DNA of 64,000 nt, from assembly GCA_038045385.1 (NCBI GenBank), contig JBBSYE010000008.1, positions 11,208-75,207 of the forward strand, read 5' to 3'. The position numbers were made by a program, and so were the translations under genes. How positions within the stretch are numbered: the first letter of the stretch is position 1; each line of letters opens with the position of its first letter. Shown in pieces: positions 12,150 through 26,068 of this stretch. Below the pieces are notes generated by a model that was not told the DNA's origin, searched no databases, and saw nothing but the letters and a program-made list of their open reading frames with translations. This DNA comes from Nanobdellota archaeon. Lineage in GTDB: Archaea; Nanobdellota; Nanobdellia; Pacearchaeales; GW2011-AR1.

Positions 12150-14273
12150 ATGGGCAGACAAGACGAAATAATAAAAGAAAGAATGCGAAAGATTGAGGAG
12201 CTTCGCGCTAGTGGGATAAATCCTTATCCTTATTCTTATGACCAAAAAGATTCTGCCGCCGACTTGCAAGAAGAACATGCTAAACTTAAAACAGAAGGAA
12301 AATCTAAAAAAATTGTGAAAGTGGCTGGACGATTAATGAGCGTTAGAGATATCGGAAAGATTGCATTTGGTGTGTTGCAAGATGGCTCTGGGAGAATACA
12401 AGTTTTGTTGCAAGATGGAGAGACGCCAGATAAGACTTTTGAATTCTTTAAGAAATATGTTGATTCTGGAGATTTTATTGGCGTTGAAGGTCCTGTTCTT
12501 AGGACTAAAAGAGGGGAGTTAAGCGTGCTTGTTAAGAAGATGGAATTGTTATCTAAATCTATTTTGCCTTTACCTGATAAATGGCACGGACTAGAGGATA
12601 AAGAAGAGCGATATAGAAAGAGATATGTTGATTTGCTTATGAGTCCTGAAGTTAAAGAAGTTTTTTTAAAGAGAGAGAAAATTATTGATTCCATTCGCGA
12701 GTTCTTGAAATCTAAAAAGTTTAACGAGGTTGATACGCCTTACTTACAGAGTGTTTATGGCGGGGCAGCTGCAAGGCCATTTAAGACGCATTTGAATGCG
12801 CTGAACATTGAATTATTTTTGGCTATATCCCCGGAGCTATATTTGAAGAGATTGATTGTTGGAGGATTTGATAGAGTTTTTACTATCGCAAGAAATTTTA
12901 GAAATGAAGGAATTGATAGATGGCATAATCCTGAATTTACGATGATGGAAATCTATCAAGCTTATGCGGACTATAATGATATGATGACTCTGACAGAGGA
13001 TTTATTTGAGCATGTCGCTAAAAAGGTTAATGGGACTAGTAAAGTAAAAATTGGGGATAAAGAGATTGACTTTAAGGCTCCTTGGAAAAGAATGACTATG
13101 CTTGATGCAATAAAGAAATTTGCTAAAATTGATGCAGATAAAATGTCCTCAAGTGAGCTGGGAGATTTTATGCGAAAGAATAGAGTTGAGCCAAAAGGCG
13201 AGAGCTGGGGTTGGAGAGTGCAAGCGATATTCGAGCATTTTTGCGAGAAGCACCTAGAACAGCCGACTTTTATTATTGATCATCCTGTTGAGACTACGCC
13301 GCTATGTAAGACGCATAGAAGCGGGGATAAGAGATTGATTGAGAGATTTGAGCCTTTTGCTTTAGGTGCGGAGTTGGCTAATGCTTATTCTGAACTGAAT
13401 GATCCAGTTTTGCAGAGAAAAATGCTTGAGGATCAGCAGAGCGAATTGAGCAAGGGAAATGCTGAAGCAAATCCTTATGATGAAGATTTTGTTAATGCTA
13501 TTGAGACTGGACTTCCGCCTACTGGCGGATTGGGAATTGGAATAGATAGAATGGTGATTCTTATGCTTGGACAGGAATCTATCAGAGATGTAATATTATT
13601 TCCATTTATGAAACCTGTGCAGGAAGAAAAAAGACCTGAGCCTGTTGAAGATAAAAGCGTTCATATTGAGGGCAAAAGACATCCTGAATTGCCAAAAGAA
13701 ATTCCCGCTGGGAAAGCTGTGTCTAGAAAAGAGGCTTTAGCGCTTCTTATGGAGTATGTTAAATCGGATAGTCTTCAGCAACATTGCTTATCTTTAGAGG
13801 CCGTAATGAGGGCCTACGCCCGTAAACTTGGGGAGAATGAAGAGCTATGGGGAATTACTGGATTATTACATGATTTTGATTATGAGAAATTCCCTGAAAA
13901 GCACACTATTGCAGGAACTTCAATACTTATTGAGAAAAAATATCCAAAAGAGATAATCCATGCAATTCTATCTCACTACTCGTCTTTCACTGGAGTTCCA
14001 CGTAAGACTCGCATGGAAAAAGTTCTTTTTGCTGTGGACGAACTTGTGGGTTTAATTACTGCTTTGTCTAAAGTTAGAGCTGACAAATTTGCAGGAATGA
14101 CTCCTGAGTCTGTTGAGAAAGCAATGAAAAAGAAAGATTTTGCTGCTAAGATAGATAGAAAAGATATTGAACTTGGTATTGCTGAAATGGAAAGTATTGG
14201 GGTAGACAGAGAAGAACATTTTAACCTTGTTATTGAAGCTCTTAGAAATTGGCATATGGGGAAAAATGGTTGA
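12150..14273 (+). CDS. lysS: Class II lysyl-tRNA synthetase fused to a C-terminal HD-superfamily hydrolase domain
   Basis: N-terminal OB fold plus class II core (FRNEGIDRWHNPEFTMMEIYQAY, GGLGIGIDRMVILM) ending near FPFMKP. A further roughly 215 aa carry LLHDFDYEKFPEKH...ILSHY (HD, COG2316-like). Confidence 0.9.
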   Translation: MGRQDEIIKERMRKIEELRASGINPYPYSYDQKDSAADLQEEHAKLKTEGKSKKIVKVAGRLMSVRDIGKIAFGVLQDGSGRIQVLLQDGETPDKTFEFFKKYVDSGDFIGVEGPVLRTKRGELSVLVKKMELLSKSILPLPDKWHGLEDKEERYRKRYVDLLMSPEVKEVFLKREKIIDSIREFLKSKKFNEVDTPYLQSVYGGAAARPFKTHLNALNIELFLAISPELYLKRLIVGGFDRVFTIARNFRNEGIDRWHNPEFTMMEIYQAYADYNDMMTLTEDLFEHVAKKVNGTSKVKIGDKEIDFKAPWKRMTMLDAIKKFAKIDADKMSSSELGDFMRKNRVEPKGESWGWRVQAIFEHFCEKHLEQPTFIIDHPVETTPLCKTHRSGDKRLIERFEPFALGAELANAYSELNDPVLQRKMLEDQQSELSKGNAEANPYDEDFVNAIETGLPPTGGLGIGIDRMVILMLGQESIRDVILFPFMKPVQEEKRPEPVEDKSVHIEGKRHPELPKEIPAGKAVSRKEALALLMEYVKSDSLQQHCLSLEAVMRAYARKLGENEELWGITGLLHDFDYEKFPEKHTIAGTSILIEKKYPKEIIHAILSHYSSFTGVPRKTRMEKVLFAVDELVGLITALSKVRADKFAGMTPESVEKAMKKKDFAAKIDRKDIELGIAEMESIGVDREEHFNLVIEALRNWHMGKNG

Positions 14274-14975: not shown

Positions 14976-15149
14976 ATGGGTGATGTAGAATTAATTATTA
15001 AGAGCAAGATTAAGTCTGCAGTTCCTGAATTAAGCGTTGCTAGTGAGGTGCCTGAAGCGTTGAATAAAAAAGTTCTTGAGCTTTTGAGAGTGGCTAGTGA
15101 GAGAGCAAAGGCTAATGGGCGGAGAACTTTACAGGCGAGAGATTTGTGA
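14976..15149 (+). CDS. DUF1931 histone-fold-like small protein
   Basis: 57-aa ORF absent from the track: MGDVELIIKSKIKSAVPELSVASEVPEALNKKVLELLRVASERAKANGRRTLQARDL. The ending ANGR.T..ARDL is typical of DUF1931/histone-fold proteins. Confidence 0.5.
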   Translation: MGDVELIIKSKIKSAVPELSVASEVPEALNKKVLELLRVASERAKANGRRTLQARDL

Positions 15150-15264
15150 GATTAAATGATAAGCAGGTTTTATTTTTTCCTTGTAAAATAGCTATTGCGC
15201 GTGCTTTTCTGGAAGTTAATTGAGCAAGATAATCTTTAGTTTCTTTTGCGTGAATTTTGTCAAT

Positions 15265-15975
15265 TTATTCTAGAGCTCTAGCTTCAAAATCGGCGCGCGT
15301 GCCTTCGGCACGAACGAAATCCACACGACCACTCGCACTGGAGCCCGCGACGCCCCAATCCGCGTTCCAATGGCCGCCCCTATAGCGGTCCAGCCTGCGA
15401 AGACCTGAATATCCAACAGGACTAAATCTTCTAAGGGCTTCTTTTGCTTGCTCTCCGTGTATGATTAAAGAATCGTCTTCACTAAAAGCAAATTCTAGCC
15501 CTTTATTTTTTAGGACAAAACTTGAGGGATGAGCTAATATTGGTAACTGCCAATTTCTTTTTTGTGCTTCAATTATTAGAGGGGTGGCTAGTTCTTTATT
15601 TGGGGATCCATCTGAATATATTGCTAAACCCAAGTCTCTATAAACTCCGTTGGTTAATTTGCCTTGTTTATCTAATTGCATTGCTTCGTCAAAAGTTAGT
15701 GTTCTCTTTTTTGATGGTGCTAAAACTTCGTTTGCAACCACCATAAGCTGAAAGTTTGAACCATTTATTTCTCCTGTTTCTTTATTATATTGCCAGTATG
15801 CGTTTGCCCATGGGGCGTTTGCATATTTTTCTTTGATTTTTTCAACGACGCCTTGATGCAAATCTCTTGCGCCATCATGTATTAATTTTTCTGCATAGCT
15901 AATGCGTTGGACTGGCTCTAATAAAACAATTCTTTCTGCTTCTTGCGCTTGGTTTGTCATGTTTTTTCTACTCAT
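15265..15975 (-). CDS. Candidate DGR target protein with GC-rich VR-like C-terminus
   Basis: 236 aa with no signal peptide. The C-terminus RRLDRYRGGHWNADWGVAGSSASGRVDFVRAEG is encoded by a sharply GC-rich patch and resembles the VR of 25286-26068. Confidence 0.6.
   Translation of the reverse strand: MSRKNMTNQAQEAERIVLLEPVQRISYAEKLIHDGARDLHQGVVEKIKEKYANAPWANAYWQYNKETGEINGSNFQLMVVANEVLAPSKKRTLTFDEAMQLDKQGKLTNGVYRDLGLAIYSDGSPNKELATPLIIEAQKRNWQLPILAHPSSFVLKNKGLEFAFSEDDSLIIHGEQAKEALRRFSPVGYSGLRRLDRYRGGHWNADWGVAGSSASGRVDFVRAEGTRADFEARALE
15298..15312 (-). other. Hairpin just 3' of the VR-like region (6-bp stem, GAA loop on coding strand)
   Basis: The plus strand reads cgtgcc-ttc-ggcacg, a perfect 6-bp stem. 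The position and GAA loop match the hairpin at 25302-25314. Confidence 0.5.
15316..15399 (-). repeat. VR-like variable region (orphan: no matching TR in this window)
   Basis: GC-rich island in an AT-rich gene. It shares RLD..G..W...G.A.G..(V/F) spacing with the TR/VR at 24987-25421 but differs at non-adenine TR positions and in length. Confidence 0.5.
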
Positions 15976-23877: not shown

Positions 23878-24348
23878 TTATTTATTATCCTGGGTTGGGG
23901 AATATATCTTCTGCACTATTTTTCTCCTTACCTTAAGACTATTCGCCCATTTGGCGTAAGCGTTCCAACCTTGAAAACTTTCTAAAATTTTGTCTTTGGA
24001 AATTTTTCCATTTTTATAATCAGCGATTTTTGCAACCATCTTTCTGATATTTCTCTTTCTTAGAAGCCTGAAATAGTAAAAATTACGAAAACCTATGAAG
24101 TCAATACCTCTTGAAAGTTGAGTAATTTTTGATTTTTGAGGATGTAATTCTAACTTTAATTTATCTGCTAAAAATAGATTAATTTGTTCTTTCCAGATTT
24201 CAAGCTGTTCTTTGCTTTCATGTAAAATTACAAAATCATCAACATATCTTATGTAATATTTTACTTTCAGTGAGTGTTTGACAAAATAGTCCAACTCATT
24301 CAAATAGACATTTGCAAAGAATTGGCTTGTGAGATTGCCGAAAGGCAT
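23878..24348 (-). CDS. DGR reverse transcriptase, C-terminal segment (after frame break)
   Basis: Contains the DGR-RT hallmark GNLTSQFFANVYLNELDYF and the catalytic YVDDF. The frame stays open upstream through LIFWLEPKG into the (AG)8 tract. Confidence 0.8.
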   Translation of the reverse strand: MPFGNLTSQFFANVYLNELDYFVKHSLKVKYYIRYVDDFVILHESKEQLEIWKEQINLFLADKLKLELHPQKSKITQLSRGIDFIGFRNFYYFRLLRKRNIRKMVAKIADYKNGKISKDKILESFQGWNAYAKWANSLKVRRKIVQKIYSPTQDNK

Positions 24349-24371
24349 CCCCTTTGGCTCCAGCCAAAAAA

Positions 24372-24965
24372 TTAACTCTCTCTCTCTCTCTTCGTTTCGG
24401 AGTTCGCAACAATTTTTTTGATTAGACCGATAATATTTTCATCTTTAATCTTTTTTGAGAGAATTTTGACTAGAATTTTATGGTTAACCTTTTCAAAATA
24501 ATGTTTTATATCTGCTTTTAAACAATATCCTTTTATTTGGTTATGAGTGAAAGTTCCATTAGTTTTTCCGTTTTGAGAAATTTTTCTTACAAATTGTTCA
24601 AATCTCTTTAATGCAAATAAGTTGCATTTACCTTTTTGGTTTGCACATGAATCATAAATAAAAGTTGTACCGAAAATTGGTTCAATAATTTGAATTAGTG
24701 CGTGATGTACAATTCTGTCAGGAAAAGCTGATTTAGAGATTTTTCGGGTTTTAGGGTCTCGCAAAATAAAAGTTTTCAATTGCTCTGGTTTGTAAGTTAA
24801 ATTTTCAAGCTCTTCTTTAAGCTTAGTAAGATTTTTTCTTAGAGAGGTTTCAAATTCAAGCACATAGTTTTTCTTTGTTTTGCCCTTTCGTGCATTTTTC
24901 CATGCAAGATTCAAGTTTTTAGGTGTGAAAATTTTTTTATAAAGGTTATTGTATGTTTTTGCCAT
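24372..24965 (-). CDS. DGR reverse transcriptase, N-terminal segment (before frame break)
   Basis: The ATG at 24965 gives MAKTYNNLYKKIFTPKNLNLAWKNARKGK...RDPKTRKISKSAFPDRIVHHAL (RT motifs 1-2). It terminates just after the (AG)8 tract. Confidence 0.8.
   Translation of the reverse strand: MAKTYNNLYKKIFTPKNLNLAWKNARKGKTKKNYVLEFETSLRKNLTKLKEELENLTYKPEQLKTFILRDPKTRKISKSAFPDRIVHHALIQIIEPIFGTTFIYDSCANQKGKCNLFALKRFEQFVRKISQNGKTNGTFTHNQIKGYCLKADIKHYFEKVNHKILVKILSKKIKDENIIGLIKKIVANSETKRERES
24376..24391 (-). repeat. (AG)8 dinucleotide tract at the RT frame break
   Basis: The plus strand reads ctctctctctctctct. The two RT segments are in different frames on either side. Losing one AG unit (or gaining two) would join them. 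Confidence 0.9.
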
Positions 24966-24986
24966 ATTTGGTCTTAGTGCTAGAGC

Positions 24987-25083
24987 CATTCCAAAAGCAT
25001 AGCCGTTGTTGTCGTTCCAGTTGTTGCCATTGACGTTCAACCTGTTGCTGTCCGCGTTCCTGTTGGAATTCAAATCCGCAACC
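24987..25083 (-). repeat. DGR template repeat (TR)
   Basis: 97 nt, AAC-rich (reads N-S-N-R-N-A-D-S-N-R-L-N-V-N-G-N-N-W-N-D-N-N-G-Y). It ends 22 nt upstream of the RT ATG and aligns to 25322-25421. Confidence 0.85.
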
Positions 25084-25285
25084 GGACTATGTAGCCTTTT
25101 GCTCTAAAGTAAAATCACCAATGCTTCATTGTTCGCTCTGCTCATTTTCGTTCCTTCATCGCTACCAAATGTTGCATCTGCATTTCATACCCTTACGAGC
25201 ATAAGCAAAAGGCGTGTGGCCCTAGCGTGGTTTTATACCAAACTAAGACAAAATAATAGAGAAATCTCTTGTTAATAAGTGTTTA

Positions 25286-26068
25286 CTAATTTTTTTGCGC
25301 AGCCGCTTCGCGGTCATCTAACACCCCAAAAGCACAGCCGCCGTCGACGTCGTACCAGTAGTCGCCAACGACGTCCAACCTGCCGCTGCCCGCGCCCCTG
25401 TCGGAATCCAAACCCGCAACCTTTAATATAGATTCTTTAGTAGGCTCAAAGGCATACACATTAACTCCTCTTGGATAATTCGTTTTGCAAGCAATTAGTT
25501 TTAGAATTTTGGTCTTCGGAGCATGCTCTAAAATCCTTGCTAGTCCGCCTTCTAAAAAGACATCTTGTTCTTGGACTCCTCTTTCAAAAGAAGCGTAATC
25601 TGCGAAGCCAAAGTCTCTTAAATTTTCTGAATTTTCTACTAAATAGACTTGTCCTTTGCCTGTTTTTATTGGAGAGATTCCATTTAGATATTGTTTAAGA
25701 ATTGCTTCATTAGTTATTGGGTCGCCTTGCTCATCTTTCGGAGGATTAGCAAACACTCCTTCGTTTGTTCTTACTATCCATCCTGCTTGGAGCCATCTTG
25801 GGTCAAATATCTGAGGTTTAGCTCTATTTGCAAAATCGCATGATGCAACTAGAATAGATTCTCTTGTAGTTGGTGCTCTAAATGTTATTTCTTCTCCTGT
25901 TTCGGGATGTGAATAAAGTTTTTGCATTTCTTTAGCATTGTTACTAAAATACTCAGGACCGAAAGCTTTTGCACTTGCTATTCGGTTATGTTTTTTAATT
26001 AGTATTAGACTTCTTGGCGGAGCCTTTGGCTTTCCTGCTTCAATTATTTCGTATCCTGTTTCTGTCAT
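25286..26068 (-). CDS. DGR target (variable) protein
   Basis: 260 aa with no signal peptide. The C-terminus GLDSDRGAGSGRLDVVGDYWYDVDGGCAFGVL is encoded by the VR. Confidence 0.8.
   Translation of the reverse strand: MTETGYEIIEAGKPKAPPRSLILIKKHNRIASAKAFGPEYFSNNAKEMQKLYSHPETGEEITFRAPTTRESILVASCDFANRAKPQIFDPRWLQAGWIVRTNEGVFANPPKDEQGDPITNEAILKQYLNGISPIKTGKGQVYLVENSENLRDFGFADYASFERGVQEQDVFLEGGLARILEHAPKTKILKLIACKTNYPRGVNVYAFEPTKESILKVAGLDSDRGAGSGRLDVVGDYWYDVDGGCAFGVLDDREAAAQKN
25302..25314 (-). other. Hairpin 8 nt 3' of the VR (4-bp GC stem plus G-U, GAA loop on coding strand)
   Basis: The plus strand reads g-ccgc-ttc-gcgg-t. Its position is analogous to hairpins described downstream of the VR/IMH in characterised DGRs. 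Confidence 0.5.
25322..25421 (-). repeat. DGR variable repeat (VR) at the 3' end of the target gene
   Basis: Aligns to the TR with 20 substitutions, all at TR adenines, plus one extra GGC codon. It is GC-rich relative to its flanks. Confidence 0.85.

Follow-up and report, generated by a model that had tools for sequence, protein, structure and literature searches.

An orphan DGR variable region, possibly a frozen relic, in a DPANN archaeal genome

The gene TP2 (15265..15975, minus strand) lies in the window, the whole 64,000-nt stretch of DNA analysed here, and carries near its 3' end a GC-rich segment, VR2 (15320..15405, minus strand), which we regard with roughly 95% probability as a true variable region of a DGR, belonging to a family of AvpA-style targets. 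This assignment, already proposed in the initial annotation, is borne out by the cognate templates (TRs) of relatives, which differ from their VRs at adenines only, by VR variants within one relative and by matching codon columns. We lean towards reading VR2 as a frozen relic from which the RT-16/TR module has been lost.

The TP2 ORF encodes a protein of 236 aa with the C-terminal end ...GLRRLDRYRGGHWNADWGVAGSSASGRVDFVRAEGTRADFEARALE, and the protein tail as encoded is ...SGLRRLDRYRGGHWNADWGVAGSSASGRVDFVRAEGTRADFEARALE; the public annotation gives a product of 231 aa with its start at 15960. Sequence searches identified 12 close relatives and 102 cluster representatives from DPANN archaea, the hosts, where named, being Nanoarchaeota, Woesearchaeota or Parvarchaeum MAGs. 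No Pfam domain was found in TP2 or in any of these relatives. The family comprises about 100 protein clusters, has in common the GC island and hairpin described below and is built on the scaffold SGVRRLxRxRxGxWxAxWxxLxxSxxxGRVDW(V/I)(R/C)(A/G)E(G/A)TR, with variation at the positions marked x. The loci of the family are tied together by recurring synteny, the recurrent neighbours being TruB, an RNA methyltransferase, DUF362, acylphosphatase, an aminoacyl-tRNA synthetase and a PIN/MazE-like pair.

The end of TP2 exhibits a GC content of 0.66 at 15300-15399 against 0.33-0.41 in the remaining gene and its flanks (gene overall approximately 35%), and VR2 itself has the same value of 0.66. An island of 0.62-0.72 is present at the equivalent spot in three homologues from other genomes, which argues that the feature, described earlier from this one gene, is not due to chance. 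VR2 is the counterpart of the stretch that matches a TR in the relatives. Its scaffold begins CGC AGG CTG nnY CGC nnY AGG nnY GGC nnY TGG nnY GCG nnY TGG, and the codons in the variable columns are GAC, TAT, GGC, CAT, AAC, GAT, GGC, GGC, AGT and AGT, all of the form NNY. When VR2 and 19 other family VRs were aligned codon by codon with two cognate TRs (L003 and L032), the variable columns of the 20 VRs coincided with the AAY columns of the TRs, and the third base in these columns was, with few exceptions, C or T. The NNY codons of VR2 are thus placed at template AAY positions through the TRs of these two homologues rather than through a TR of its own. Reverse transcription with adenine misincorporation followed by retrohoming would convert AAY template codons to NNY and raise the GC content. 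Since the VR2 codons fit the NNY columns, the island can be read as the residue of such adenine-to-N rewriting, as had been suggested for the GC enrichment.

The 3' end of VR2 is IMH-like (GGT CGT GTG GAT; 15319..15330, minus strand). In the relatives, the VR ends in GGTCGGGTGGAT and the TR in GGTCGAATGGCT or GGTCGAATAGCC, and the IMH-type pair of the family is GGTCGGGT in the VR versus GGTCGAAT in the TR. In VR2, the IMH-type end GGTCGTGTGGAT is followed by a GC-rich hairpin, CGTGCC-GAA-GGCACG (15298..15312, minus strand), with a perfect 6-bp stem and a GAA loop; it lies within the TP2 coding sequence, where it encodes R-A-E-G-T. The perfect hairpin noted earlier is present, and its stem is kept by covariation within the family. 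Its folding energy alone is unremarkable for such a GC-rich sequence (z = -0.7). Among eight distinct family sequences the stem is paired in 97.9% of cells, and three of the six stem pairs show compensatory double changes. The observed covariation score was reached by 0 of 500 shuffles and slid controls collapsed; part of this set was fetched with a pattern that fixed some stem bases and left the covarying positions free. The stem variants CGT GCC GAA GGC ACG, CGT GGC GAA GCC ACG and TGC GGC GAA GCC GCA preserve pairing and alter the protein (RAEGT, RGEAT and CGEAA, respectively). The GAA-loop hairpin and the IMH-like end are conserved across the TP2 family, and together they may mark the homing site.

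The relatives carry this family gene in several genomic arrangements, and among those examined a TR is present only in the L003/L013 lineage and in L032. In L003, the TR starts approximately 170 nt past the stop codon of the target gene and can be aligned with the VR along 86 nt, in which 13 positions differ, each of them an adenine in the TR. The Woesearchaeota MAG contig L032 encodes a complete cassette in the order target gene, RT-16, TR and RT; its TR and VR differ at 17 adenines and at no other position over 66 nt, and its RT is 65% identical to that of the window. The template in these relatives is a DGR RNA, made up of the RT-16 motif and the TR, whose coding sequence lies immediately downstream of the target gene. 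The 90% cluster of the L003 protein (P0011) contains eight sequences that differ mainly at the adenine-derived VR codons, with variants between samples, and the L003 lineage thus appears to be undergoing diversification or to have undergone it recently. The target gene, RT-16 RNA and TR lie together at 10001-11040 of L013 (also in L003, L014-L016 and L021), in a housekeeping neighbourhood of a groundwater DPANN lineage. No RT was found within approximately 10 kb on either side of the L013 locus, though its VR differs between samples, and loci of this type give the appearance of a TR RNA gene and an RT that are not linked.

Other relatives hold less of the cassette. In L001 and L030, an intact family gene is followed by the initial portion of the RT-16 region and by an RT remnant of 50 aa from the C-terminus (E = 9e-13), with no TR beside the gene. 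A matching TR is also absent from L017, L022, L028, L031 and L034 within the flanks at hand. The template-less family member of L017 (3166-3717), an ORF that appears N-terminally shortened, is located approximately 9 kb from a complete DGR (12427-13599) that serves a third, unrelated target type, a layout very like that of the window. Two contigs contain tandem paralogous targets (L035, with VRs at 1311-1417 and 2110-2216, and L018, also with two VRs) that have a common VR scaffold and differ mainly at the variable codon columns; judged by this pattern, the genes of each pair look like two targets of one TR.

Structural prediction of TP2 with AlphaFold, using the family alignment, gave a model with a pLDDT of 94.6. 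The VR accounts for two strands (192-197 and 203-207) and a loop; the final strand (220-225) is GRVDFV, encoded by the IMH, and a helix follows. The best PDB and viral matches of this model in Foldseek are almost all C-type lectin domains, at weak scores (E 0.02-0.4, TM approximately 0.45). Among PDB chains, the TP2 family profiles matched (E <= 10) only a de novo design protein and two further chains of no relation, none scoring better than E = 0.095. On the basis of the model, VR2 is predicted to be the ligand-binding tip of a C-type-lectin-like, AvpA-style DPANN target family. A comparison of the C-termini of both target proteins of the window for a C-type-lectin-like fold had been recommended; only TP2 gave such matches, all of them weak, and no PDB fold match was found for the model of the second protein, TP1.

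TP1 (25286..26068, minus strand) is the target gene of the resident DGR, located approximately 9 kb from VR2, and belongs to a different and larger DPANN family than TP2. It contains VR1 (25322-25421, minus strand), followed by a counterpart of the TP2 hairpin with a 4-bp stem and a GAA loop (25303-25313, minus strand). The template of VR1 is TR1 (24987..25083, minus strand), and the two are a real adenine-mismatch pair, with 3' ends of TGGGGT in VR1 and TGGAAT in TR1. VR1 is 3 nt longer than TR1 owing to an extra GGC codon (GAC GGC GGC TGT versus AAC GGC TAT), and the remaining differences fall at TR adenines. This extra codon indicates that VR1 in its present form was not copied directly from TR1 as it now stands. 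Directly 5' of TR1 is the only RT-16 RNA of the window (Rfam RF03019; 25086..25248, minus strand), at full length and 88.8 bits. Paralogy of TP1 and TP2 was considered and is unsupported, with BLASTP E >= 1 and an hhalign alignment that does not pair the VRs. The common frame ascribed earlier to VR1 and VR2 holds for the R-L-D...W motif, which is present in both, but the likeness is otherwise loose (BLASTP E = 2.2; profile-profile probability 11%).

The RT gene of this DGR (23878..24989, minus strand) is located 8.5 kb from VR2, and its product shares 65-70% identity with thousands of DGR RTs from DPANN archaea. A frameshift at a (GA)7 tract (24377-24390) divides the gene between two reading frames. 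Intact homologues are contiguous proteins of 345-365 aa, and the window RT is present as two fragments in several independent assemblies. The tract falls in a linker of variable length that immediately precedes the conserved GMPxGNLTSQ motif. The frame could be restored if GA units were gained or lost, and the tract might therefore be a slipped-strand on/off switch of the RT rather than a sign of simple decay. The contig L007 (ERR3858121) ends at window position 24249, inside the RT gene and approximately 130 nt from the tract, which might reflect read-level heterogeneity or coincidence. Among the 120 matches listed of more than 7,800, none was an additional RT of this MAG (locus-tag prefix AABW79), a result that is uninformative.

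An RT-16 motif lies immediately 5' of the TR in all four DPANN DGRs examined (window 25086-25248, minus strand; L003 1994-2139; L017 13258-13400; L032 479-666), and none was found in this position for VR2. The paper that described motifs RT-1 to RT-19 placed them only as near RT genes. The constant position on the 5' side of the TR argues that RT-16 lies within the 5' portion of the DGR RNA and makes the motif useful for locating TRs.

An adenine-tolerant scan of the window recovered TR1 for VR1 and matched VR2 only to itself, in keeping with the earlier statement that the window holds no template for VR2. The sequence was extended beyond the window, through the genes at its edges, into L025 and L027 to a total of 79 kb (contig positions 165,848-244,533 of the 244.5-kb contig). 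The search for an A-rich near-copy recommended in the initial annotation was run on these 79 kb and detected no TR2, that is, no template differing from VR2 only at TR adenines such as those of the homologues L003 and L032. The same 79 kb contain no second RT-16 RNA; none was found around VR2 even at E <= 10, and none in L025 or L027. An adenine-tolerant IUPAC pattern of VR2 gave no match in public genome contigs, a set that does not include the source genome itself, or in viral contigs. The generic TR pattern NRNRNGNW gave only chance matches in viral contigs, located in a phage gene. A protein with 19 repeated matches to the VR (P0087) proved to be a repetitive artefact and irrelevant. Every contig that carries TP2, drawn from five samples, matches the window at 100% identity across 0.8-20 kb. 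The VR1 and VR2 proteins both form single-member clusters, VR1 being as invariant as VR2; because the population is clonal across assemblies, these clusters say nothing about activity.

TP2 itself ends at an in-frame TAA (15265..15267, minus strand) at a position where the relatives have GAA (Glu). The codon is followed by 33 in-frame codons (15166..15264, minus strand; IDKIHAKETKDYLAQLTSRKARAIAILQGKNKT) that are now untranslated and that correspond, by alignment to the relatives, to the C-terminal helix of the family. The nonsense codon shortens the protein, stripping it of this helix. These codons are still in frame and still helix-coding, which suggests that the truncation is recent. Production of the shortened lectin-like protein probably continues. 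No remnant of an RT or of RT-16 was found downstream of TP2, where the space is occupied by an opposite-strand ORF of 57 aa (14976-15149, plus strand; MGDVELIIKSKIKSAVPELSVASEVPEALNKKVLELLRVASERAKANGRRTLQARDL) and then by the PIN/MazE-like pair. The product of this small ORF resembles, we presume, small histone-fold or DUF1931-type proteins.

Two explanations that do without a template of VR2's own are already contradicted by these data. The GC-rich patch might be a mere conserved Gly/Arg/Trp-rich protein motif with no link to a DGR, a reading that would suit a VR2 copy lacking a TR and a hairpin of unexceptional energy. We consider it very improbable, given relatives with perfect adenine-only TR partners, compensatory stem changes that alter the protein, and variable columns that equal the TR AAY codons and end in C or T in AT-rich genomes. 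The chance that VR2 is instead a second target of the resident TR1 is close to nil. Its distance of about 9 kb from the DGR, the R-L-D...W motif common to VR1 and a like GAA-loop hairpin would favour such an arrangement, but TR1 and VR2 differ at many non-adenine positions and by a 16-nt stretch that is extra in VR2, so that TR1 is unfit as its template, as had been concluded before, and the adenine-tolerant scan assigns TR1 to VR1 and not to VR2.

VR2 had been suggested to have a lost or a remote template or to be a fossil. The absence of TR2 from 79 kb fits either a lost or a remote template, and the assemblies, being clonal, do not discriminate between the two. In the reading that we favour, VR2 would now be frozen, with its present sequence being one fixed variant. 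Signs of decay are found in the genome, namely the RT frameshift, the extra codon of VR1 and the nonsense TAA of TP2. The RT stump and partial RT-16 of L001, with no TR, are an apparent precedent for loss in situ. Counting against a relic, the 79 kb are only part of a 244.5-kb contig, and TR2 or another intact RT could lie further away in the genome. Neither the GC island nor the hairpin has eroded in this AT-rich genome and the 33 codons after the TAA are open, so that the loss is recent or selection is continuing. Retention of the hairpin in template-less family members could also mean that they are still targeted. VR2 might accordingly be an active remote target, with TR2 and RT-16 elsewhere and an RT acting in trans, either a second copy or the resident RT restored by slippage at the (GA)7 tract. 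We think this possible but doubtful. It gains from the L003/L013 lineage, in which a TR lies by the target, no RT is found within approximately 10 kb on either side and the VR varies between samples, and from the existence of tandem targets with one common scaffold (L035 and L018). The hairpin is moreover maintained by compensatory change in template-less members, DGR targets at a distance have been documented (Wu et al. 2018, PMC5758913), and the option was left open for nanoarchaeal fragments by Paul et al. 2015 (PMC4372165). Against it are the absence of both TR2 and a second RT-16 RNA from 79 kb, a sole observed RT that is frameshifted in several assemblies, the nonsense codon of TP2 and the outright decay of a cassette in situ in the relative L001; no VR2 variant is on record either, though the clonal population makes that point uninformative.

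A wider and more speculative proposal, which we hold to be rather unlikely, is that DPANN DGRs are dispersed networks of unlinked, reshuffled RT-16/TR RNA genes, RTs and lectin-like targets, in which template-less members such as VR2 are rewritten in trans and the (GA)7 tract serves as the on/off switch of the network. Rewriting of template-less members in trans would explain why the hairpin is kept by compensatory substitutions that alter the protein.

VR2 resembles fragmentary DGRs that have been described before. Paul et al. 2015 (PMC4372165) described fragmentary DGRs of the DUSEL4 Nanoarchaeota, with adenine-mutated VRs and no RT, as 'fossils ... or diversified remotely', and also hairpins with GRA triloops within the target gene and a GGGT (IMH) versus GAAT (IMH*) distinction. 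VR2 matches these already described nanoarchaeal fragments in its host group, its sequence-'orphan' target protein, the IMH/IMH* logic and the in-gene GRA-loop hairpin. It differs in that those fragments are described there as lacking an RT, whereas VR2 also lacks, or is apart from, a TR and is located 9 kb from a DGR serving another family.

The protein AvpA (Handa et al. 2016, PMC5006420) is a single-domain, divergent C-type lectin of approximately 250 aa with a short VR located approximately 45 residues before the C-terminus. Its IMH encodes the last beta-strand, its C-terminal extension is helical and the DNA of that extension holds a hairpin; some AvpA homologues occur outside DGRs (PMC5006420). 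The TP2 model has a like layout of VR strands, last strand and helix, along with the weak C-type lectin fold matches. The AvpA motifs GxxVVVYAH, HPxxxPFxG and RFxGV are, however, not evident in the TP2 family alignment and no PDB sequence link was found; the fold matches of TP2 are weak (TM approximately 0.45), and AvpA is not among the 50 matches listed.

The components of DGRs can act in trans (Wu et al. 2018, PMC5758913), and VR2 is like the remote targets of Treponema denticola in being a VR away from an RT and a TR. Those targets were assigned through a known TR with A-to-N differences only, whereas VR2 matches no available TR. With the Mtd DGR of Bordetella phage BPP-1, as presented in PMC5006420 and PMC4372165, VR2 would have in common adenine-specific mutagenic retrohoming, AAY codons in the template, the scaffold of a C-type lectin and an IMH with a GC-rich hairpin downstream. 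It differs from that system in that its host is a cellular archaeon and its hairpin is a triloop inside the ORF.

The position of RT-16 gives this Rfam family practical value as a marker for finding TRs in DPANN genomes. If the orphan VRs are still being diversified, surveys that need adjacency of RT and VR (Roux et al. 2021) would undercount DPANN targets. Members of the TP2 family represent several stages, namely a full cassette in L032, a TR without a linked RT in L003/L013, an RT stump in L001 and nothing in the window, L017, L028, L031 and L034. These stages show predicted binding sites built by a DGR outlasting the retroelement as fixed variants, and provide a clean case of DGR turnover in ultra-small archaea.
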